Origin: a virus
Lineage: Duplodnaviria; Caudoviricetes
IMG/VR virus record: IMGVR_UViG_2873737359_000001
Coordinates: 96,001-160,000 of that record
Direction: 5' to 3' (one strand)
Length of the DNA: 64,000 nucleotides
Below are positions 9,214-42,800 of this stretch, one piece after another (within the stretch, counting starts at the first letter, position 1; each line of letters begins with the position of its first letter). The notes under the pieces were generated by a model. The model had not been told where the DNA came from, did not search any database, and saw nothing but the letters and a program-made list of their open reading frames with translations. The translations under genes were made by a program, and so were the position numbers.

Positions 9214-9286
9214 TGGTCCATAGCTCAGTTGGTAGAGCGGCTGGCTGTTAACCAGCGTGTCGTAGGTTCAAGTCCTACTGGATCAG
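9214..9286 (+). tRNA. tRNA-Asn(GTT)
   Basis: Acceptor TGGTCCA/TGGATCA, loop CTGTTAA, GGTTCAAGTCC; no encoded CCA. Confidence 0.9.
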
Positions 9287-9288
9287 TT

Positions 9289-9460
9289 TATGGCATCTGA
9301 AAGTTTGGAGCGAATGGATTGCACAGGATATATATATAGTATATGTGAAATTAACCGAGTTACTAATATATTCTGATCGGGATTAAGCAATCATTCTTAG
9401 TAGGTAATAAGTGAACATGCTGAAGCATCTTGAAACGATGTTTGATATAGTTCTGCCATA
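9289..9460 (+). ncRNA. Unassigned structured RNA A in tRNA spacer
   Basis: Closing stem TATGGCA/TGCCATA, inner stem GAATGGATTGC/GCAATCATTC; shares a 13-mer with RNA B. Confidence 0.5.
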
Positions 9461-9473
9461 TAAATACGAATAA

Positions 9474-9544
9474 TGCGGGATAGAGGAGCGGATCCTTGCT
9501 AGGCTCATGCCCTAGAGACGATTGTTCGAATCAATCTCCCGCTA
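9474..9544 (+). tRNA. tRNA-Met(CAT), initiator-like
   Basis: 1:72 T-T mismatch, A11-T24, loop CTCATGC. Confidence 0.8.
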
Positions 9545-9548
9545 TTTT

Positions 9549-9619
9549 TAGGAAATAGTTTAATAGGTAAAGCTGGTGTTCACGTGGCACTAATACTGGT
9601 TCAAGTCCAGTTTTCCTAG
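9549..9619 (+). pseudogene. Degenerate tRNA (loop TCACGTG, nominal ACG)
   Basis: Good acceptor TAGGAAA/TTTCCTA and T arm; anticodon loop lacks U33 and purine 37. Confidence 0.6.
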
Positions 9620-9625
9620 TTTTAT

Positions 9626-9776
9626 GGGATGCAAAAGTAGAAGCAGATCACTTCTAAAGATTTATAATTAGCTCCCCCATTTGTGGAGTTAATTGTCTGA
9701 AAAGGATATAAAACTATAGCTCTGTATATCTGAAGTAGGTAATAAGACAGACAAAGAGGCAGAATCTTCGCATCCC
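9626..9776 (+). ncRNA. Unassigned structured RNA B in tRNA spacer
   Basis: Closing stem GGGATGC/GCATCCC, several inner hairpins, TGTCT/AGACA and GATATA/TATATC. Confidence 0.5.
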
Positions 9777-9781
9777 GCCGA

Positions 9782-9855
9782 GTCCGGTTGGTCTAATAGG
9801 TCTATGACACAGCCCTTTCAAGGCTGTAATATGGGTTCGATTCCCGTACCGGACA
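9782..9855 (+). tRNA. tRNA-Glu(TTC)
   Basis: GTCCGGT/ACCGGAC; loop CTTTCAA. Confidence 0.9.
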
Positions 9856-9859
9856 TTAT

Positions 9860-9931
9860 GTACCATTGGTCTAATGGCTATGATATTTGACTTCCAATCA
9901 AATGATATGGGTTCAATTCCCATATGGTACT
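9860..9931 (+). tRNA. tRNA-Gly(TCC)
   Basis: GTACCAT/ATGGTAC; loop CTTCCAA. Confidence 0.88.
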
Positions 9932-10032
9932 TAAAGGTATTAGGTTTGGAATCCTTAAGGATTATTTTGGATGGTGGCATTCATAACTGTAAAACCATTT
10001 GTAGCTAGTTACAATAAATTTCCTATAAAAAT

Positions 10033-10116
10033 GCTGCTTTGGCGTAATTGGCAGGCGCACAAGATTTAAGCTCTTGTGGTTTTAAAACCGTGTGGGTTCA
10101 AGTCCCACAAGCAGTA
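10033..10116 (+). tRNA. tRNA-Leu(TAA)
   Basis: GCTGCTT/AAGCAGT; loop TTTAAGC; long variable arm. Confidence 0.9.
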
Positions 10117-10214
10117 TCGAGAATGGACGAATAGAACCATTCTCGTCTTTCATTGTGTTTTTTATAGTTTTCTTCATGTTTTTCGCAGGAGGCTTTTGTC
10201 TCCTGCTCTCCTCT

Positions 10215-10300
10215 GCAAAGTGAATCCGTAAGGCACGGAACTGACCTGCTAAGTCATGTGATCCTATTATAGGATTGAATTTCGAATATTCCGCTTTGCG
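10215..10300 (+). tRNA. tRNA-Ser(GCT) with non-canonical 8/4 cloverleaf
   Basis: Acceptor GCAAAGTG/CGCTTTGC (8 bp), T stem GAAT/ATTC (4 bp), loop CTGCTAA, long variable arm, G discriminator. Confidence 0.7.
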
Positions 10301-10306
10301 TTTAAA

Positions 10307-10393
10307 GATATGTAAATTACAGCCCACTTCCTGTGGGAATTCGTAGGTGAAAATCCTGCCATGTGACTCCAGGTTATGTGATTGCAGCATATC
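10307..10393 (+). ncRNA. Unassigned multi-hairpin RNA C
   Basis: GATATG/CATATC closing stem enclosing CCCA/TGGG, GTAGG/CCTGC and CATGTGAC/GTTATGTG hairpins. Confidence 0.4.
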
Positions 10394-10488
10394 ATAAAAA
10401 AAGACAAAGAAAGAAGCTGCAGGACGCAGCTTCTACTATTATTAATCCAATATGGAATTATATACCCGCCAAGCTCAACAACAAGAAA

Positions 10489-10569
10489 TTAACAGAATGT
10501 TTTAATAACTCTTAGCACCCAACTGAGTGCATCAAGTCCTAGAATAATATATGTAATATACTTATCCAT
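10489..10569 (-). CDS. 26-aa hydrophobic peptide (type I toxin-like; not in ORF track)
   Basis: SD GAGGAGGT; MDKYITYIILGLDALSWVLRVIKTFC; own promoter and terminator. Confidence 0.6.
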   Translation of the reverse strand: MDKYITYIILGLDALSWVLRVIKTFC

Positions 10570-10729
10570 AGTTTATAAACCTCCTCTCATATCCGATTGG
10601 AGGCACATGAGCTAAAATCTGCCCTAAAAGGCGGCCGTTTGAAAATAACCGTTGTATATTGCTTGGTTTACCACGAGAGAAAATCTCCCTATGAACTCTT
10701 TTGGAGTCCTCGACCTCTAGCAGGATGGT

Positions 10730-10758
10730 ATCGTATCATAATTGGATAATCTTGTCAA
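10730..10758 (-). promoter_or_regulatory. Sigma-A promoter antisense to the tRNA array
   Basis: TTGACA-17-TACGAT with TG extension. Confidence 0.6.
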
Positions 10759-10818
10759 GTATTAATTGGTGAATGACTACTGGGTGGTCTGGCGATCCGG
10801 AAAGACGGATGAAATGTT

Positions 10819-10891
10819 GCTAGAATAGCTCAATTGGTGGAGCAGCTGATTTGTAACCAGCAGGTTTAGGGTTCGAGTCCCTATTTTAGCT
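10819..10891 (+). tRNA. tRNA-Thr(TGT)
   Basis: GCTAGAA/TTTTAGC; loop TTTGTAA. Confidence 0.88.
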
Positions 10892-10894
10892 TAT

Positions 10895-10977
10895 GCCGTG
10901 TGTCCGGGTTGGTGAGGAAGCAGTCCTGAAAACTGTTGGTCCGAAAGGACTTGCACGTTCGAATCGTGTGCACGGCG
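10895..10977 (+). tRNA. tRNA-Ser(TGA)
   Basis: GCCGTGT/GCACGGC; loop CCTGAAA (C33); variable arm GTCC-GAAA-GGAC. Confidence 0.8.
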
Positions 10978-10985
10978 TTTATCAG

Positions 10986-11002
10986 AGAGTTTGATCCTGG
11001 CT
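10986..11002 (+). other. 16S rRNA 5'-end fragment
   Basis: AGAGTTTGATCCTGGCT = first 17 nt of the universal 27F site; no rRNA gene follows. Confidence 0.7.
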
Positions 11003-11033
11003 TGATATTTTCATTTTTAGAAAGGCTTGGTGT

Positions 11034-11105
11034 GCATCTTTAGTATATGTGGTAATACAATGGTCTCCAAAACCATAGAACAGGGTTCAAGTCCTTGAGG
11101 ATGTG
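11034..11105 (+). tRNA. tRNA-Trp(CCA)
   Basis: GCATCTT/AGGATGT; loop CTCCAAA. Confidence 0.88.
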
Positions 11106-11113
11106 TTTATTAT

Positions 11114-11196
11114 GGGAGAATATTCCGTAGATAGTAGCGGGGCGGTCTGTAAAACCGTTGTCATTGACTCGGGTGGTGCAACTCCATCTTCTCCCA
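11114..11196 (+). tRNA. tRNA-Tyr(GTA)
   Basis: GGGAGAA/TTCTCCC; loop CTGTAAA; atypical T loop TGCAACT. Confidence 0.8.
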
Positions 11197-11333
11197 CTAG
11201 GTTGGCAAATTAAATCAAAATACCATAAAACATCGTAGATATAGTTTTACCATGAGGATGCTTGCGTCAGATTTGGTTTATAAAAGGTTTTGTCTCTGAT
11301 CATGACAGATAATGAGCCTTTGAGTCTACACAT

Positions 11334-11405
11334 AGATATATAGCTTAATGGATAGAGCGCACGGCTACGAACCGTGTAATATAGGTTCGAGTCCTATTAT
11401 ATCTG
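11334..11405 (+). tRNA. tRNA-Arg(ACG)
   Basis: AGATATA/TATATCT; loop CTACGAA. Confidence 0.9.
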
Positions 11406-15785: not shown

Positions 15786-15865
15786 CGACATATGGCGGAA
15801 TTGGCAGACGCGCCAGATTTAGGTTCTGGTGTTTATTCGTGAGAGTTCGAATCTCTCTATGTCGA
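15786..15865 (+). tRNA. tRNA-Leu(TAG)
   Basis: CGACATA/TATGTCG; loop TTTAGGT. Confidence 0.88.
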
Positions 15866-25838: not shown

Positions 25839-28567
25839 ATGATTACTGCCGACATGTACAGATCGCATCTTAATTCATATGGCAGTAATTTAGCACAGGT
25901 TAAACAAAGCCAATCTAATATGGTTGTAAATAGTGCCTTTACTGCGGATGCACAATATAAAAGAGTTTATATATTAACAAAAGATGGATGGAAATTCGAG
26001 GATGCAAAGTTTCAAAAGCACGCGAAATATTCTATTCTTAAAGATGCCGTTGATTATTACGTTCAGTTTCGCCCAAAAGTACATTACTCTGTTGGTAGTT
26101 ATCTTTTTATTCCGGACGATACTGCTCACGAAATTAATATTCACGGTAAAGACTTAGAACATCCATTATCGCTTCCAGAAGATCAAATCACTCAATTGTG
26201 GTTTATAGTCGGTCGTGATTATGATCCATCTTTTGTTAGATATAATGTTTTGCAATGCAATTGGAAATTTAAATGGATATACAACAATAAGTTATATACA
26301 TGCTGGGGTGCGAATAGATCGGCCAACAGCTACACAAGCGGTAAATGGACAGATTTTGTATGGATTTTCTGTACATACATGGTCCGCTGTAAAGGGAAAC
26401 CTTGACAGCGCATTCTTTCGGATATGCTGGAATTAGGCTGTACACATAGCCGTCCTAAAGCTTACTAAACTACAACATAATGATGGAATATGCATAAGTG
26501 TGAATGTCGCGAAAGCAGAAAAAATTAGTAAGATGGTATAAGCTGAAACAAAAGCTTTTATATAATAAAAGTGCTAAGTACTACTACAATGGGAAATCAG
26601 CAGGGAATAGTTTAACTAGGCTTGCCCTCATCGACTATCGGTTGAAATACCGTTAGGGAGAAGTCTCCCGAAGTGAAAGACTCCTAAGTGCTTAATTGCA
26701 TATGGTGAATGATATAGTCAGTGCTTACATGAAAGTGTAAGAAAAGTTGTTTATAAATTAATATTGAATATTAAGACCAGACAGCGGGTAGCTCCTGTTT
26801 TGTTATACCTCCTATATAACAATTATGGTCTTTTTATTATACATAAATTTAGGAGGAATTTTTATGTCAAAATTATCAGTACAAAAAATATTTGAAAAGC
26901 ACGGAGACGAAATTATTAATCTTCGGAAAAATGGTATGCAGATGCAAGAAATTGGTGAAAAATTTAATTTGAAAACTCAAACTGTGAGCAGCTTTTTGCG
27001 AAGAAATAATATAAGAGTTCGCGGATTAAGGAATGAAGAAACAGAAAATAAGATAGTTCAATTATATAATGATGGAGTGTCTATGAGAGAAATTGCTTCA
27101 AATTTTCATTTTACACAAGGAACCGTCAGAGATATACTTGTTAATCATGATGTGCATATCAAAACTAATTCTGAATCACATAGGATATATGATATAAACG
27201 AAAATTATTTTAATCAAATAGATACGCCTAAAAAAGCTTATATTTTAGGATTACTATATGCAGACGGTAATAGAAGTAGCAGATCTAACACAATTTCAAT
27301 TCGTCTTCAAGAAAGTGATAAAAACATTTTAGAAAATATTAAAAAAGAATTGAATGCAGAAGTGCCATTACGATTTATTGATTATTCTAATGATTCTAAA
27401 AGACAAAACCAGTTTCTACTAGCAATAAGTAATGAACAAATTGCAAAAGATTTATATAAATACGGCATTGTTCCAAGGAAAGAATTTAAATTAACCTTTC
27501 CTAATTGGTTAGATAATAATCTCCTATCTCACTTTATAAGAGGATATTTAGACGGTGATGGTTTTATTTCAAATAACCCGAAAGAAAAACGAGCCAATAT
27601 TACCGGAACCGAAAATTTGTTACTTGGAATTAAAAATATTTTAGAAGAACAATTAAATATACATTTTAGTATATATTCACCTCATAATAAAGATACTAAT
27701 ACTAGAACGTTAGCTGTAGCTGGAGGGAATCAAGTTAAAAAATTTTTGGACTACCTTTATAAAGATGCTGATTTATATATAGAAAGAAAATACGACAGAT
27801 ATTATAATATGTACTGTGCTTAATATAAACAATCCTTATTTAAAGTAACGAATTAAATAAGTAACATTCAGGAATATTCATCTGCGCTTGACAATTTGAC
27901 ATCAGCGTGGATGCCAGACATTTATTATGCTTATGGTAATAACTTATACGAACTTGGATTAGATGATAATAGAACTGTGATGCATGAACAACGTTTCATG
28001 CTCTCAAATAATATTCTTGATCCTAAAGTATATCAGGTTACGAAAGTAACAGATCTTAATCCTTCTGGAGTAATAAAATACTCTATTAAGCAGGATGAAT
28101 TGGATAATAAACGGGATAATGTAGAATTACAAATATGTGATTATTATACGGACTCCGGTGATCAAAAAACTGAGACTATACAAAAGCCTCAAATGATGAT
28201 TACGGAATCTCAAATCAGGTGGTTAACTCTTAATGATGATGGAGAATTAGAACCTATCTATGATAAATCTAAGCAATGTCTATATCTAGGAAAGAATTCT
28301 TATTTCGAATACAAACTCCCATATCAAGACTTAAAATCCGAATGGAATCTAAGTGTATATGATAGAAAAAACGAATTATCTGACGAAGACAAATCTTATT
28401 ATGAAGGATTAATGAAAATAACAGTTATGGATAATGTAACTATTTCAATTAAGCCGGGAAAGGCTAATAGTCTTATTGGTAAAAGATTTATTCTTTCAGC
28501 GACAGATAATAATGGCGATAACCACTCTTCTATCGTACTGGAGGTGGAAAAATGGTCAGAGACATAA
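25839..28567 (+). CDS. Neck / head-closure-like protein, spliced (exons approx. 25839-26354 and 27872-28567, about 403 aa)
   Basis: Removing the intron gives in-frame ...SYTSGKWTD|EYSSALDNLTSAWMP... Confidence 0.7.
26355..27871 (+). mobile_element. Group I intron (IA-type) with homing endonuclease
   Basis: P ATGCTGGAA 26424, Q AATCAGCAGG 26595, R TCATCGACTA 26628, S GATATAGTC 26711, P3 TCTTTC/GAAAGA, two extra helices between P7 and P3', P9 GAAA loop, terminal G; 5' boundary inferred from reading frame. Confidence 0.9.
26864..27823 (+). CDS. LAGLIDADG homing endonuclease with N-terminal HTH-like repeats
   Basis: AYILGLLYADG and HFIRGYLDGDG; SD AGGAGG before ATG 26864. Confidence 0.9.
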   Translation: MSKLSVQKIFEKHGDEIINLRKNGMQMQEIGEKFNLKTQTVSSFLRRNNIRVRGLRNEETENKIVQLYNDGVSMREIASNFHFTQGTVRDILVNHDVHIKTNSESHRIYDINENYFNQIDTPKKAYILGLLYADGNRSSRSNTISIRLQESDKNILENIKKELNAEVPLRFIDYSNDSKRQNQFLLAISNEQIAKDLYKYGIVPRKEFKLTFPNWLDNNLLSHFIRGYLDGDGFISNNPKEKRANITGTENLLLGIKNILEEQLNIHFSIYSPHNKDTNTRTLAVAGGNQVKKFLDYLYKDADLYIERKYDRYYNMYCA

Positions 28568-33860: not shown

Positions 33861-36800
33861 ATGAGTGATATGAAATTAGGAGAGATTAGTCTTGATCCTG
33901 TTGCTGAAGCAATTGTTAAAGGGGTCAATATGAAAGCAAATTCTAAGGCTAATAAAGAATTTCAAAAAACAATAGATCAAATAAAAGAAGGCACAGACAT
34001 GCCTGTTAGATTTAACCCCAATACTTCCGAATTTGATAAAGCTAAAAAAGAAGCTGAGAAACCAATAAAGACTCCGGTTAAATTAGAGACAGAAAATGTT
34101 GATCTCCCGCTTCTAGGGAAAACTCCTGTAAAATTATCAATTGATAAAGATAGTCGAACTGCTATTAAAAAAACTTTAAAGGATGCAGAAAAAGCATCAA
34201 AAAGTTTAATTGATTCTGCGGCAAGAACTGTAAAAAAAATAGGTTCCGCAAATTATTTAGAAGAACTTACAAAAAATGAACGACAAGCAATTTCTACTGC
34301 AGTGTCTAAAGTAAAACGTAACCATCCTGAAATTTCAGATGATAGGTTAAAAACATTTGAGCAAAATCTTATATTAGATAGACGAGCAAAAAAAACACAT
34401 GAAACATTATCAGAAAATTTCAAGCTTCCAGATTCTTCTTCTAAATCATATGGACAAGAGATGTATGAAGCTGCTATTGCAGCTGCAAAGATTCAGGCTG
34501 CTGTTAAAATCAGAGAAGATCTTCATAACGATGAAAGCTATACACAATTTTTATCAAAAAATGATAGAAGCAAAAGTTATAATGGCAACACTCTTAAGAT
34601 ACCAGGAAAATTTATAGATCAAATACAAACTGGTTTGTACGAACATTTAGGGGTTACAGAATTAGGCAATGCTCTTACTTCTGGAAATAGCTGGACTGGA
34701 ATACAAGATCGTATGGTACGATCAATTGATTCTTTTAGTGCAGGTTTAACAGATGTTATAGAAGCTTCTATTCCAAAGACTTCTTCTGGAGATCGTATCA
34801 CTAAGAAATTTCAGAAAAGAATAGATTCTGCTGTTAAAATGGCTGTTGGTATGTCTGTAGATGATGCCATTAATTATTTAACAGGGAAAAGGGGCATTAA
34901 AGAAAATAAAGAGGCGTTATCTTTATTAGGAAAGAAAAAAAATGGAGAATATGAATATTCTGTTGATGATATACTTGGCATATTATCAGAGAAGGCGCCA
35001 ACAGGTGGATCTGAAAACGGTGGCACTAATTATAAAGGATTTAGTCAAATTTTAGGAGCCTTACAGGTATATAACAGAAACGGAGCGTCTGGATTAAGTG
35101 CAAATCGTATTGAACGATTATCAGAACTTGTTGATGTAATTACCTCTACTTATACAGGCAATGATGGTTTCGTTGATTATGATGCAAAAACCGTAATTAA
35201 GTCAATCGATACAGCATTAGATAAAGTTCAGGACGAAGCCGAAAAGGCGTCAAAAGAATCAAAAGAACAACCTAAAGTAGCGGAAAAACCTAAATCTAAA
35301 AAATCTAATGAGAAGTCCTCTTCTACAACTTCTAAAAAAGAATCTGCAAAGACTGAGACTAAAACGGTTGAAGAAAAAGAACCGGGAAAAATTGAAAAAT
35401 CTAAAGAAGAATTTGTTTCTTCTACTCCAAATAAATCCCATCGTAAAGTAGTAAAACCTCCTAAAATCTTAAAGGGCAATTCTCAAGCCAGAGATGTGAA
35501 TGGTAATTTATTATCTTGGGATGGACAAGATTGGAAAATAAAATCAAATTCAGAATCCGATTCTTTATGGGAAAATATACCAGAGAATCCGTCTCCTGAA
35601 TTTTTAAAAAGATTTGAAAGAGCTAAAAAATTTACCAAAAATCATCCTGAATTATTTGGTCCAGATGCTCTCCCTATAGAATTTGATGAGGAAGCTTTTT
35701 TGAAAGATTTTTTGAAAACATTGAATGATGCTCCCCCTATAAAATTTGATGAGGAAGATTTTGGGAAAACAATGAATGATGGAGTAAGTGTTAAAGTTCC
35801 AGATGCATCCAAAGATATAAAAGATGGAGCAAAGCAAATAAAACAGGCGTCAGATACAATAGAAAAAACTTCCAAAACCGATCAAAAAATATCTGATGAC
35901 AAGAAAGAATCTTCTGATTCTATAAAACCAAAAACTCATTCATCTTCACATTCGAAAAAAGGAAATAATCAACAAGATGACGATCAAGATCAAATAAATA
36001 CTGGAAATGATGTAAAAAAAACAAAAAAAGAATTTACATCACAATATAAAGAAGCCATTTCTGATATTAAAGATCTAGGGAAAGCATATGTTAATCTTCA
36101 AAATGCTATTTTAAATCCAACAGGTAAAACTTATAAAAAATCAAATGGAAAAATAGGATCTTCATATGAAGATTTTATTGATCAGCAATTATCTGATATT
36201 GAAAATAAGGAAAATCGAATTAGGTCATTTAACAAAAATGTTCATAATCAAAATAAGACAAATCCTTCTCAAATTAAGGATCAGAATATTTTTGATAGTT
36301 ATGAGAAAGAATTGCAAGATAGTCAGTTACAGCAAAGTCAATTTGATGATAATCTAGTTAGTCTTATGAGATCTGCATACGAAGTTCGTAATAATGCTCA
36401 AAATGAAATACTTAAAACGATTGGCAGTCCTACACGAAAAGGAGAAATTAATTTAGAAAAATTTGCAAAGCAGCAAGAACGCTTTGCTAAAAGTGATTAT
36501 GTGTACAATTTGCTTAGTGATAAAGTAAGCAAACGTAAAGGAAATGCATATCAAGAATCTGCCATATCTGATATTGCGGAATCTTCAAAAACAGATAGAG
36601 AGTCTATTTTACAAACGAATTTTGGTACGTTGTCTCAACAAATCAATGATTATGTATCATCTATTGAAAGAGCTGGACGCGCAAGCGAACAATTCAAATC
36701 AGATTTTGGAAAAATACAATCTGATTTGAATAAAAATGATCCTTCTCAATTTAAAGATACTGAATCAGGTATGAAAGAATATCTTGACTTTATGACAGAT

Positions 36801-39800
36801 ATTCGCAGTCGTTTTAACAGCAATAAAGATTTTTATGAAAATGGCATCGGAAAATCTACTTTAGATTATGAAGCTATCAAAAATAAATTAATTAAAGCAG
36901 AAAACTATAATACTAAAACAAATGAGTATAAATCAAAAGTTTTTGGTTTTCAAGAACAATGGGATGGTATTATAGATAGTTACAGTTCCGGAGATATAGA
37001 GAAAATGAAAGAAGCGGAACATGCCGCCACTTCTCTTATATCCACAATGAACGACTTTTATAAAGAATCATCTAAAAGTGATAAATATAAAAAGACAACG
37101 TCGAAAGGTACTTTAGTAGAAGACACTGTAGGTAAGGTTCAAGATATTAATGATGCAAAACAATCATTAAAACAATTTACCGATGAAATGAAATTAACTA
37201 ATAAGGTGTCAGAAACCATTGATACATCAACAGGTAAGATCACACAAAAATTCAAAGATGATTATTCTGGAAATATAATTACTATCACAAGTAATATTGA
37301 CGAACTTAACAATGCTCTTAGAACAACTCAAAAAATTCAATCATCCGGTTCAGGTGGTTCAGGCGGCTCTCTTCTGGGAGGATTAAAAAATCTCGTATCC
37401 GGCAACTTTAAATCAATTGTTGGTGAAATAGGAAGTAGCGTAGCTAATGTTCAAATTCTTGGCCAAGCTTTCCAGCAAATGAAAGATGGATTTAATACAT
37501 TCCTTGATTTCAATAAAGGATTAACTAATATCAGTTATACCATGGATATGAGCAAAGAACAGCTCTCATCTCTCGGATCATCTGCTGTTGATATGGCCAA
37601 AGATCTTTCTATGTCCTTGGATAATACCATGGATATCTATCAGATCTATGCAAATATGAATACTACACCTAAGGAAATCCAGGAAACAGCGAAGCCTACT
37701 GCTATTCTGAGTAACTTAAGTGGTGTAGATGCTTCTACCGCCGCCGATCAGGTACAGGGTATTCTTCAGCAGTTCCATATGCTTGAAGATGGCTCTACTA
37801 CTGCTGCCGATGCTTCCATGCACGTAGTTGATGTATTGGATAAGATTTCCGGAAATATCGGTATGGATTATGCTAAGGGAATCAAGGTTATTTCTGATGC
37901 GGTACAGGCTTCCGGTCAGGTAGCATTTGATGCTGGAATGAGCTACGAGCAGTTAGCTGCTGTATCTGCTAAAGTAGCTGAAAGAACTCGTGAAGATGGA
38001 TCTTCTATTGGTAATGCAATGAAGACTATCATAACGAGAATCAGTAAAGTTGGATCTATGCCAGAATATGCTGCAGATGTAAGTAATGAAGATCTTTCCC
38101 AGGCTTCAGAGTCTTTACATAAAGTTGGTGTAGAAGTCTATAACACAGATGGATCATTCCGTGATCTTGATACAATCCTTTCAGAACTTAATTCTAAATG
38201 GGACGGATTGACAGACGCTCAAAAAGCAAATATTTCATACAATGTTGCAGCCACGAGGCAAACTTCAAAATTCAAGAATATACTTGAAGCTTGGACAGAT
38301 TCTATGAATTTGGCAAACGAGGCCACTACAACCAGTGGTAATGCCGAAGCCAATCAGGAAAAATATATGGAATCTTTCTCCGGAAAGATCCAGGCAATAA
38401 AAACTCAGATGGATGAGTTTTGGTTAAACTTCTATAATTCAGACCAGGTATCTGGAGCTTTAGATTTTGTACAAGGTTTAACCGAAGGATTTACAGGGCT
38501 TGAAGAAGCCATTGGTCCAATTCCTACTCTAATCACGGCTGTATTCTCAGCATTGACCGTAAAAAATGCAGCAACAAAAGGATTAGACTTTTTAGTAGGG
38601 AAAGATGGACAAGCAAGTGGACTTGCAAATGCCGTGGGTTGACCCAAATTCGGGGTTACAGTTATTATTTCCGATTAATAATGAGCCTATCTACATAAAG
38701 ATCGTGAGATCAATGTGTGGAGACGAGCGGCAATAAATAACTAGAGGATTAAAACGTTGAAACCTGCTATTCTATAATATAGTGAATCGGGCGAAAGCCT
38801 GCAGGTAACGCACGTGCCAACCTGGTTAACGTCTAGTAATATGTGAAACATTAGTAACAATTGCGGAAGCAATGATGAGGGAAGCATATGAATAATCAGG
38901 AAGTGTAGAGAGCGCACCCTTCCTCGGAGTATATACAAAATCCATATATGTATATGCTTTTAATGAATGTGCCTATAGTAATGATGGTGAAATCCATCCA
39001 GTACTCTTCTACTGTTATTTTAAATGAAGAAAAATATTTTTAGGAAGTGCCCCTATAAAAGAGGCACTGTTATTAAAGGTTTTATCCTTTAATCCTCGGG
39101 CAAAAAAAATGGTCCCCGACCGTCTCACTTGCCGCCCGATGCAACGCTTGCAAAGTCACAATTAAAATTAGCCGAGATCTCATTTATGCTAACTTTAATA
39201 TAGAAACTTAAAGCTTCTGGATTATGTTTGAGTATCATCCAGATAGCTGCAAGAATCAATATTGAAATTATAGCTAATATAATTATTGACCCTACAAGCT
39301 TAATTCGTTTTGAATTATTGTCCATATTTCACCTCCTGTCTGCAGTGTTTATGGCACTGCCATAGGAGACAAATTGACTCTAACCAAAACGTCAGAATCA
39401 TGATGACTTCTGATAATTTACCACCTACACTTTTCTGAAGGTATTATGTAAGAAATATATAGTGCACTTATATATTCTACACATGGTAAATTATACCAAT
39501 TATATTCGAAATGTATAGTCAGAACGTTTGATCTGGTTAATATAAAAGTGCATCACAAATAGAGCAGGACGATTGATCCTGCTCTATTCTATTTTTCTCC
39601 AATATCCTCCAAAGGAGATTTCACATGAAAAAGTTATATAAATCTAATCTAAAATTTAATCTTAACATACTATGTAAGATAATTAAGTTTGAACTGAAAA
39701 TAATTACAAAGCATAAACGACTCGCAGAAAAGTGGTTTGAAAAGATCACAACACTAGAATGTGAGTCTATATTTGAGAAAATGGACGAGCGGAAGAAATA

Positions 39801-42800
39801 TCTATAATTTGCGCCACTTCTCTTTGTCTATTACTTCTTCCCGATTCTTCTATTTTCCTCTTCTACCTGAAAGGACTAAATACCCATGAACAAATTTCAA
39901 CGAATTTTACAACATTATGGACAAATCAAAAATTCTACTACTGGACCGTATACAAAACCTTACGAGTTCAGAAATATGACTGATTACGAATGGTACAAAA
40001 AATGTTGTTCTGATATATCACAAAACTATGGGATACTGCTCAACCAAAATCAATCATATTTAAGCTATTGGTTTCATAGGAAAAAGGCAGATGTAAAATT
40101 GTTATTGTCTATTGTTGTTTCCTCCATTTAGAAAGGTGGCGATCCATTATGCAGACAAACCACAAGGTTCTTTCTACTGTTATAGATATTACACAGTTAC
40201 TTTGCAAAAATTCTTGTACATATGATGAAGCGTATAAAATATTAAATATGGTTACTGCCGAATTTAAACAGCAGCAAGAAAATTTAGAATACGCAACATA
40301 CGATGACTATTTTGCAGGTACAAAAACTGATGATGTAAGTAATAAAGTCATTGCACCATTAAATCATGCGGGTGGTTATTGATCTTACTTACTTCCTGGT
40401 TTCCAACGATATCCGCACTTCTGACAAAGATTATGCTTTTTGCTAGATCCCCAAAATCCTGTTAAAAGTGAATATCCGGATTCTTCCGTTGTCACTGACG
40501 TTGATCCGCACTTTGGACAGCGAACGGTTTTGGACGGATCTGGAATATCGGCAGTGTTGAATTCGAAGTATTGGAAGTTGTGGTCGATACAGGTTGTAAT
40601 GAATTTGTAGGCAAGATGAGCTGTATTATTTTGTGCATACCAATTAAAACGTTCTCGAATAAGCCGAGTTATTTTAGTAGTAACAGATAGATATTTTTGC
40701 TGTCCTTCAGGGCAATTAACATTGTCAAAATTTTTAGGGTTATTAAAGCGTTGAAAATTTTCTTTATAGAATCCTTTTTGAGCTTCGTTCGATAATGAAT
40801 TATATAACTCTTTAAAATGTGTTAAATCGTATTCTACTCCATCGACCAAACAAATATTTTCTTTATGAATATTGCTCAAAGGGAAACCACAGTGTATACA
40901 AGCTGGAGCTTTATCAGAGACATTACCGCCACATTCAGGACATTTAATTAACATACCTTTATCCCTCCATTTTCTTTTAATTTTATCATACTATAGTCAT
41001 TAAGTAAAATCGGAAATCTAAAAAAAGCGATAAATTCAAAAGATACGGATACGGTGAAAAGTGTTCTTAGCGGAATGGATCTTGATACTGCTGGTAAATG
41101 GTTTGGACGTTTAAATCAGGAAAATGGAAAAACTATAATTTCTGAAGATATTTTTTCAGATATATTTTCACAATTATTTGGTGAATTAGGCGAAGACACT
41201 ATCAAAAAAGCCATTGCTAAAGGCACTGCTTCAAAAGGTTTCAAAGGTGCACTCTCTGCTGGTATTAGCGGTTTTGCTGGTGGATTAGCTGGTATTGGAG
41301 AAAGTATTGGTACTGTAGGTACAGGATTAGTATCATTTCTGGGTTCTATCTGGCCTTTATTAGCAGTTGGTGGAGGAATTTTTGCAGGTATTAAAGGATA
41401 CCAGGCATTAAACGATAAATTCACTCTTACTAAAGGAATGGCGGACAAACATTATTCTCAGTCCACACAGGAATATGCAAATAACCAGTCCGAACTGGAA
41501 TCCTTGCAGTCTCAGAGAGATACCAACCAAGAGCGTATTTACGAACTCCGGGCCAAAGAAAATCAGTCTCCTGACGAAAAAGCAGAATTGAGTCAACTTC
41601 AGGAAGAAAATAATCTTCTTGATTCTCAGGTAGCTATAAAAGAAAAGTCTGTGGACGTATCTAAGCTAAAGGCAGCCAATGATGCCAAAACGAAACTTGA
41701 GAAAAAAGGATACCAGAAGAACTATAAAAAGGAAGCTTACGATAATCAAGATAAAACTTCAATCAATGATTTAGATGAAGCTTCTGAAATGATTGATTAT
41801 TTAAATCAGCTTAAATCTGAGTACAAAGATCGTGTTCAGAAAATTGCGGATGAAGGTAGAGAACCAAGTTGGATTGAACAGAAAGGTTTGGATAGCACAA
41901 AGAAAAAGATTGACAGTTTGGAATCAGATGTTGCTGATAAGGTAACAGAAATCTCTGACACCGCTAAAAGCATGAAGAACGATGATGGATCTCTTATTGA
42001 TGAGAAATTCAAAGATACTGTTGCTTCTGCTGATGCTGTTGTACAGAAATATCTGAACTCTACAGACTCTACCACAGCCACTTCCGATAAGATGAATAAC
42101 ATCTTTGCACTCTCTCAATTCTCAGATCTGAAGGATAAACTCATTGCCGCAGGTAAATCCGGTGGTACAGATGCTATCCAGAAAATGATTGATGACACAG
42201 ACGGTCTTAAAGATGCAATGAATAATGCCGGACTCACTGCGGATGATCTCAAGGATAGTATTATGTCTATAGCAGATCCTGACGCGAAGAATCTGGAAGG
42301 CATCAAGGAGAATCTTGAGGACATATTCGGTAAGGATGGTCTTGGACAGTCTGATTTCTTCAAAGGTAAAACGGATGAAGAGCTTGAGAACTTCTGGGAT
42401 TATCTCCAGGACAACAACTATAATCCTAAGCAGATGAACTGGAATGAGGAAACCACTAAGAAAAACTTCGAGGCAGCACAGGAAGCTAAGAAGAAAACTC
42501 CAGAGGAATCTGCCACATTCGCTTCTAAATTCAAGAATGCAGCAGAAGATACTGCTACTGACATTGATACTGTAACAGATAACTTCCAATCTGACATGAA
42601 GAATATCCAGTCTGCTATGGAGTCCGTAACAAACGGTACATTCCAGAATTCTGATATGGCAGATCTGATCCAGCAGTTCCCGGAATTAAGTAATGCCAGT
42701 GGTGATTTGAAGGATAATCTTCAGGATCTTGCCATGAATAAAGGGGCTGAGGCCATTGGTAAGATCAGGGATTCTGTAAAGGATGTTACGGACCCGAAGC

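Follow-up and report, generated by a model that had tools for sequence, protein, structure and literature searches.

Compensated variation beneath the guanosine-binding pair of a probable group I intron family in phage tape-measure genes

The question raised by this locus is whether an unusual guanosine-binding helix (P7), lying between two parts of a tape-measure gene, belongs to a divergent subclass of group I introns. The window (the whole stretch of 64,000 nucleotides that was analysed) is a prophage within a 3.7-Mb genome. An ORF at 33861-38642 (1593 aa) carries a PhageMin_Tail domain at its end, and its protein matches are tape-measure proteins from many Firmicute phages; it forms exon 1 of the tape-measure gene. 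The frame of exon 2, as seen directly in the sequence, is in frame with exon 1 and open from 40997 for about 3030 aa, and its first start codon is a GTG at 41054. The gap between the two frames is 2.36 kb, and the variant P7 lies within the first 350 nt of it. In a tape-measure gene with 51% identity (L222), there is no stop in the split region and the gene runs on into a Gly-rich hydrophobic segment, and such an uninterrupted reading frame fits a single continuous tape-measure protein. Since the 5' U.G pair, omega-G40996, P9.0 and P10 are all in place (Table 1), the element that splits the gene is, as read from its letters, a group I intron with a length of 2357 nt. Its splicing would give a predicted exon junction in which ...GCCGUGGGU is joined to UCAUUAAGU... 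(GUGGGU to UCAUUA). The contigs obtained in run X1 (share 0.08) for window positions 38898-38974 are unspliced pieces of one relative and hold no splice-site joint, which weighs neither way.

To compare the core among relatives, about 100 homologous cores were collected from IMG/VR phage contigs and Frisingicoccus genomes. These loci came from pattern scans of IMG/VR and genome contigs, two of which left P7 unconstrained, and more loci were added by scanning with the protein sequence of the exon 1 end. The loci form several clades; in one of them, class C, the intron occupies the same tape-measure insertion site and exon 1 has 66% identity. A set of 21 sequences was aligned (alignment A1), on which the full group I model and the pair counts are based. 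It turned out that 88.8% of the cells in A1 are paired, against 32-47% when the 3' partners are slid by 1-3 columns. Double-sided changes are found in 35 of 77 pairs, and none of 500 shuffles reached the observed values. At least one compensatory pair is present in each of P3, P4, P5, P6 and P8, and two covarying pairs are present in P7. For example, a G-C pair of P3 is swapped to C-G in L169 with pairing kept, and P4 shows an additional G-C to A-U change in L202. The U.G pair at the cut (U38639.G38685) exists in all 17 aligned relatives with letters there. The hairpin in the P1 loop reads CAGCC...GGCUG in the Frisingicoccus copies and UGACCC...GGGUUA in class C, and the P9 hairpin appears as GGUAG/CUACU, GUGG/CCAC or CAUGG/CCAUG. 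Two features count against the model, namely a short P4 (4-5 bp) and an unusual spacing of 4 nt (CCAA) between P4' and P6. Earlier candidates for P3 (at 38878-85) and for P4 (CGUUG/UAACG or CGUUG/CAAUG) were dropped, as they fail in relatives.

Table 1. Predicted features of the tape-measure intron and of a second group I intron in the window
Feature	Position	Strand	Remark
Second group I intron in the window	26346-27886		GACUA 26633-37, UAGUC 26715-19; internal ORF 26865-27823
P1 5' strand GUGGGU, last six exon-1 bases	38634-38639	+	pairs with GCCUAU 38685-90; 5' splice site after U38639
Hairpin UGACCC...GGGUUA inside the P1 loop, directly after the 5' splice site	38640-38658	+	recurs in relatives
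Internal guide	38667-38690	+	P10 extension 38667-76; P10 UAAUGA 38679-84; P1 3' strand GCCUAU 38685-90
P2, GUGA tetraloop	38691-38720	+	4 pairs changed on both sides (A1)
P3 5' strand GAGGA	38744-38748	+	pairs with UCCUC 38921-25, 100% paired (A1)
P4	38753-57/38812-16	+	A-U vs U-A covariation, 12 vs 9 sequences (A1)
P5	38763-67/38801-05	+	double-sided changes (A1)
P5a	38772-75/38779-82	+	double-sided changes (A1)
P5b, GAAA loop	38790-92/38797-99	+	double-sided changes (A1)
P6	38821-27/38894-900	+	6 of 7 pairs changed on both sides (A1)
P6a, enclosed by P6	38839-43/38885-89	+	
P6b, GNRA loop, enclosed by P6	38860-64/38869-73	+	5 of 5 pairs changed on both sides (A1)
J6/7 (AAGUGUAGA)	38901-38909	+	A38907, G38908, A38909 invariant in A1
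P7 5' strand	38910-38916	+	G38910, bulged A38911, G38912 (guanosine-binding G), C38913, G38914, C38915, A38916
J7/3 CCCU	38917-20	+	all that lies between P7 and P3'
P3 3' strand UCCUC	38921-38925	+	preceded by J7/3
P8 hairpin	38928-38958	+	4 pairs changed on both sides (A1)
J8/7 UAAUGAA	38961-38967	+	AAUG.A invariant in A1
P7 3' strand UGUGCC	38968-38973	+	C38972, partner of the guanosine-binding G; invariant
P9.0 5' strand UAUAGUA	38974-38980	+	pairs with 40989-95 directly before omega-G
P9 hairpin GAUGG UGAAAU CCAUC	38983-38998	+	conserved with covariation in relatives
Cargo, about 2 kb between P9 and the intron 3' end	38999-40988	.	includes zinc-ribbon ORF 40385-40954, reverse strand
P9.0 3' strand UACUAUA and omega-G40996	40989-40996	+	3' splice site after 40996
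Exon 2 start (UCAUUAAGUAAAAUCGGAAAU)	40997-41017	+	targets of P10 and P10 extension

A bulged helix of 6 bp is by itself not significant, and the support for P7 is comparative. Its pairs are G38910-C38973, G38912-C38972, C38913-G38971, G38914.U38970, C38915-G38969 and A38916-U38968, with A38911 unpaired, and all six form in 21 of 21 sequences of A1. From the outer to the inner pair, the observed types are GC20/AU1, GC21, AU18/CG3, GU15/AU6, CG21 and AU21. The binding pair G38912-C38972 is thus invariant and the last two pairs never vary, while the outer pair covaries (A-U in L129, where the bulge is C) and the fourth pair is G.U in 15 sequences and A-U in 6. These observations uphold the original prediction that the helix is a P7 departing from the classical R/S motif with the bulge and the G-C binding pair kept, and J8/7 does read AAUGAA (38962-67). 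The motif GACUA/UAGUC is absent, being GCGCA/UGUGC in the window intron and GARCA/UGUUC in the family. The P7 consensus of the family is G(A)GARCA/UGUUCC, compared with the classical (N)AGACUA/UAGUC(N), and the departure shared by the whole family lies in the distal part, where RCA/UGU replaces CUA/UAG.

The pair directly under the binding pair (38913/38971), flagged as C-G where A-U is normally conserved, is C-G in only 3 sequences of A1, namely the window intron and two near relatives (the contigs that underlie L118/L218 and L146/L219). In L202, which lies outside the A1 counts and has an exon 1 with 75% identity, this position is U-A (GAGUGCA/UGUACC). Three Watson-Crick pair types (A-U, C-G and U-A) therefore occur at one position within one intron family, and the flagged C-G stands for the window intron but not as a trait of the family, whose consensus is A-U. 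On the comparative evidence, the C-G pair is a lineage-specific compensated double substitution from A-U and not a rebuilt pocket. Published engineering work, with reference to Oe et al. (2000, 2001), states that the P7 sequence outside 264:311 tolerates changes as long as it stays paired, and that position 262:312 is G:C or C:G about equally (PMC2860135). Given this tolerance, a compensated change beside the binding pair is not shocking. In the literature that was searched, no census of how the 265:310 pair varies among group I introns turned up.

We consider it highly probable that this P7 is a compensated A-U to C-G variant within a gut-phage family of group I introns, and that the window intron reaches its 3' splice site through P9.0, P10 and a P10 extension. 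In the cryo-EM structures of the Tetrahymena ribozyme, the pocket is a four-layer sandwich of A263.C262-G312, G.G264-C311, A261.A265-U310 and A306.C266-G309, and in solved ribozymes the J6/7 A both makes a triple with the pair next below the binding pair and contacts the guanosine (PMC10020454). When the window intron is mapped onto this structure, A38909 is the likely counterpart of A261, and A38967 that of A306. Through a base triple, G38912-C38972 would first bind exogenous guanosine and then, in the second step, omega-G40996. By homology with the solved ribozymes, the other layers would be the bulged A38911 on G38910-C38973, the J6/7 A38909 on C38913-G38971 and the J8/7 A38967 on G38914.U38970. 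The arrangement resembles the canonical pocket (Tetrahymena G264-C311; Azoarcus, Twort) in having a bulged A after the outer pair, a G-C binding pair in second place, an A at the end of both J6/7 and J8/7, and an omega-G abutting P9.0. It differs from that pocket in the missing GACUA/UAGUC motif. Where Tetrahymena has A265-U310 under the binding pair, the window intron has C-G (and its relatives A-U or U-A), and the next two P7 pairs are G.U and C-G instead of C-G and U-A. If the mapping is right, the layers A.(C-G) and A261.(A265-U310) cannot be isosteric, which counts against the proposed mechanism.

The 3' splice site is located about 2 kb beyond the core. P10 is formed by 38679-84 and exon-2 UCAUUA (40997-41002), 6 bp, and the segment 38667-38676 pairs perfectly with 41008-41017, extending the P10 guide by 10 bp to about 16 bp. 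G40996 is the sole G in 6 kb with a P9.0 of at least 7 contiguous bp and a P10 of at least 6 bp, and any such joint site was found in 9 of 2000 shuffles. The junction, UACUAUAG followed by UCAUUAAG, recurs in L118 and L146. In class C, the introns (2306-3313 nt) end in ...UCAUG with UCAUUAAGUAAAAUCGGAAAA behind the splice site, the P10 extension has 12 bp with one compensatory A-U/U-A change, and P9.0, a helix of 4-6 bp, shows covariation with the stretch behind P7' as AUGA(GC)/(GC)UCAU. Both the start of exon 2 and its 16-bp pairing with the guide persist across clades. For the intron copies in Frisingicoccus, the 3' splice site was not located. An extension of P9.0 to 13 bp was rejected because it competes with the P9 hairpin (38983-87/38994-98); as this hairpin is conserved and covaries, P9.0 was limited to 7 bp as the safe figure. 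The predicted P9.0 of "7 bp or more" thus holds safely at 7 bp. It had also been proposed that a long P9.0 and P10 compensate for the insertion; the 10-12 bp P10 extension kept in relatives favours the P10 part, while the P9.0 part does not survive, since P9.0 has just 4-6 bp where the inserts are larger (2.3-3.3 kb). As the alignments read, the long exon-2 guide is a feature of the family and a long P9.0 is not. In this model, the distant 3' splice site would be drawn to the pocket by P9.0 (7 bp), P10 (6 bp) and the P10 extension (10 bp). In engineering work, a duplex abutting omega-G together with flanking arms lets an end-placed core find the second-step site in a long RNA (PMC11417360).

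To figure out how such introns are seen by covariance models, Rfam RF00028 (gathering threshold 50 bits) was run on the window, the region and 7 relatives, and there was no match even at E<=10; over the whole genome, none was found either. The printed consensus of RF00028 scores R (GUUCAaAGACUA; AGACUA) and S (gAAGAUAUAGUCu; AUAGUC) as unpaired conserved sequence, so that a divergent P7 directly costs score. The canonical intron in the window (26.3-27.9 kb) was likewise missed, and a miss by RF00028 therefore does not establish a new subclass. The expectation that covariance models might miss the tape-measure intron is borne out, but it is no proof of a divergent subclass, for which the undetected GACUA/UAGUC intron is a counter-example. 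RF00028 is inadequate for many subgroups (PMC6125680, PMC11878797), and one model cannot cover the group I subgroups (PMC6125680); 14 GISSD subgroups have subgroup-specific covariance models (PMC6125680, PMC11835236), and phage introns go beyond the current subgroup scheme (PMC11878797). Subgroup IA (IA1/IA2), the usual phage type, has P7.1/P7.2 hairpins between P7 and P3' (PMC4227781, PMC3984707). No such hairpins are found between P7 and P3' in the tape-measure intron. Their absence excludes it from this usual IA type and separates it from the tape-measure introns of Bacillus cereus (PMC2504315) and from IStrons (PMC4227781). Whether the family is a structural subgroup outside the 14 current ones, with the flagged layer free and the J6/7 A fixed, is doubtful though conceivable; if true, a "base-triple sandwich" would be built unlike the pockets of Tetrahymena, Azoarcus and Twort.

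Among the other readings of the variant P7, one holds that the C-G pair, with the altered distal P7 of the family, weakens or retunes guanosine binding, so that splicing would be slow, protein-dependent or regulated. The flagged layer varies among A-U, U-A and C-G under an invariant J6/7 A, and the triple cannot be identical in all members; besides, this layer forms a triple with the J6/7 A, which contacts the guanosine, in solved ribozymes (PMC10020454). However, the introns with these three variants are all otherwise conserved and lie in frame within an essential tail gene, and engineering work reports P7 to be changeable apart from 264:311 (PMC2860135); we regard retuned binding as unlikely. 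Still less probable is that the intron is a decayed, non-splicing relic, in which P7 is a mere remnant and the tape-measure protein is made as two separate polypeptides. Such a relic would fit the absence of an Rfam match and of a homing endonuclease, and the 2 kb of unrelated ORFs inside. Against it, the compensatory changes in P3-P8 and P9.0 indicate that selection on the fold is still acting, the open exon-2 frame offers no start codon before the GTG, and the exon-2 start and its guide pairing are kept across clades.

The assignment of P7 itself could be wrong if the true structure were the hairpin 38898-903/38919-24 or another register. RNAalifold, which cannot represent the P3/P7 pseudoknot, draws the AGGAAG 38898-903/CUUCCU 38919-24 hairpin and no P7 on a 98-column excerpt. 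The changes in this hairpin are one-sided only, though, and it would take strands of the covarying P3 and P6, while P7 is paired in every sequence of A1 and, with L202 included, shows three pair types at the flagged position and two at a further one; a mistaken P7 is thus very hard to credit. The AGGAAG/CUUCCU hairpin (P6 3' strand with the J7/3-P3' strand) is possible in all relatives, where it might trap the folding or represent an alternative state. The reading that we prefer remains the compensated P7 variant in a presumably spliced intron.

Several known introns can be set beside this compensated variant. The second intron in the window also has a group I core, lies in a structural gene of the same prophage and is RF00028-negative, but it has GACUA/UAGUC, two P7.1/P7.2-type hairpins that separate P7 from P3', and an internal ORF. 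The T4 sunY (nrdD) intron, as reported by Michel et al. (1992, Genes Dev), and IStrons (PMC4227781) resemble the tape-measure intron in having a ribozyme core with compact P1-P9 at the 5' end, then kilobases of cargo, and a remote 3' splice site reached via P9.0 and P10. They differ in belonging to IA2, with a canonical P7 and an insert that holds a homing endonuclease or an IS. Compared with both, the tape-measure intron carries small ORFs and a reverse zinc-ribbon gene, and its P10 guide has about 16 bp. In Bacillus cereus-group prophages, tape-measure introns TMP-IVS1/2 are of class IA2 and IVS3 is of class IA1 (PMC2504315). They share the type of host gene, reside in prophages and are mostly without a functional homing endonuclease, whereas they are IA introns with P7.1/P7.2, and the intron here has a different P7 and no such hairpins.

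The cargo of the tape-measure intron consists of small ORFs and a reverse-strand zinc-ribbon gene, with no homing endonuclease, and it is 770 nt shorter in L118 and L146. With the zinc-ribbon protein as bait, four full-length relatives were found in genome contigs, and the remaining matches share the N-terminal ribbon only; at L002, the sole one of the four inspected, no intron core lies beside the gene. Exon 1 protein in L118 and L146 is 98% identical to that of the window, the first 100 aa of exon 2 are 45-48% identical, and the first exon-2 codons and the 3' junction are the same. Judging by these identities, the tape-measure gene has a mosaic boundary at the place of the intron. The prophage also carries a tRNA array (window 9214-11405 and 15786-15865) with at least 10 tRNA genes and two weak tRNA-Sec-like matches.

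The distribution of the family was further searched in several datasets. When 400 genomes of the same family were searched with BLAST, one of them (Frisingicoccus) proved to hold the P7-P8 block in two near-identical copies. In Frisingicoccus, L100 (3261, 6833) and L102 (3225, 7268) each contain two near-identical cores 3.6-4 kb apart; behind each copy comes a zinc-ribbon ORF on the reverse strand, and the two copies are separated by an IS3-type transposase pair (HTH + rve). Pfam gave no match for the ORFs upstream of these cores. A model of P6'-P7-P8-P7' (R1) gave one weak extra match (L201, 30 bits) in 150 genomes of the family, and did not detect the canonical introns L190-L199. At the expected P7 place, L201 (1501-1593) has GAGAGAG...UUUUCU; it could belong to the intron family as a more distant relative whose P7 is different again. 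For 50,697 GenBank phage records, blastn with the region and with the core of one relative gave no match, and tblastn of the exon-2 start against phages gave none. Metagenome contigs from run X1 hold more relatives of the P7-P8 block with a differing P8 and J8/7 (e.g. ...UUUUAAUGCAUGU...), which makes the intron family more diverse than the sample here.

In conclusion, this family provides well-supported covarying natural variation in the layer immediately beneath the pair that binds guanosine in a group I ribozyme, with three Watson-Crick pairs in one family, a natural A-U/U-A/C-G series for probing the contribution of this layer to guanosine binding. Moreover, the Rfam model on which genome annotation relies does not see these phage tape-measure introns, although their family is sizeable, and as a result giant tape-measure genes are annotated as two ORFs. 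Besides, with the core placed at one end and kilobases of cargo, these introns are natural designs of relevance to the engineering of RNA circularisation (PMC11417360).
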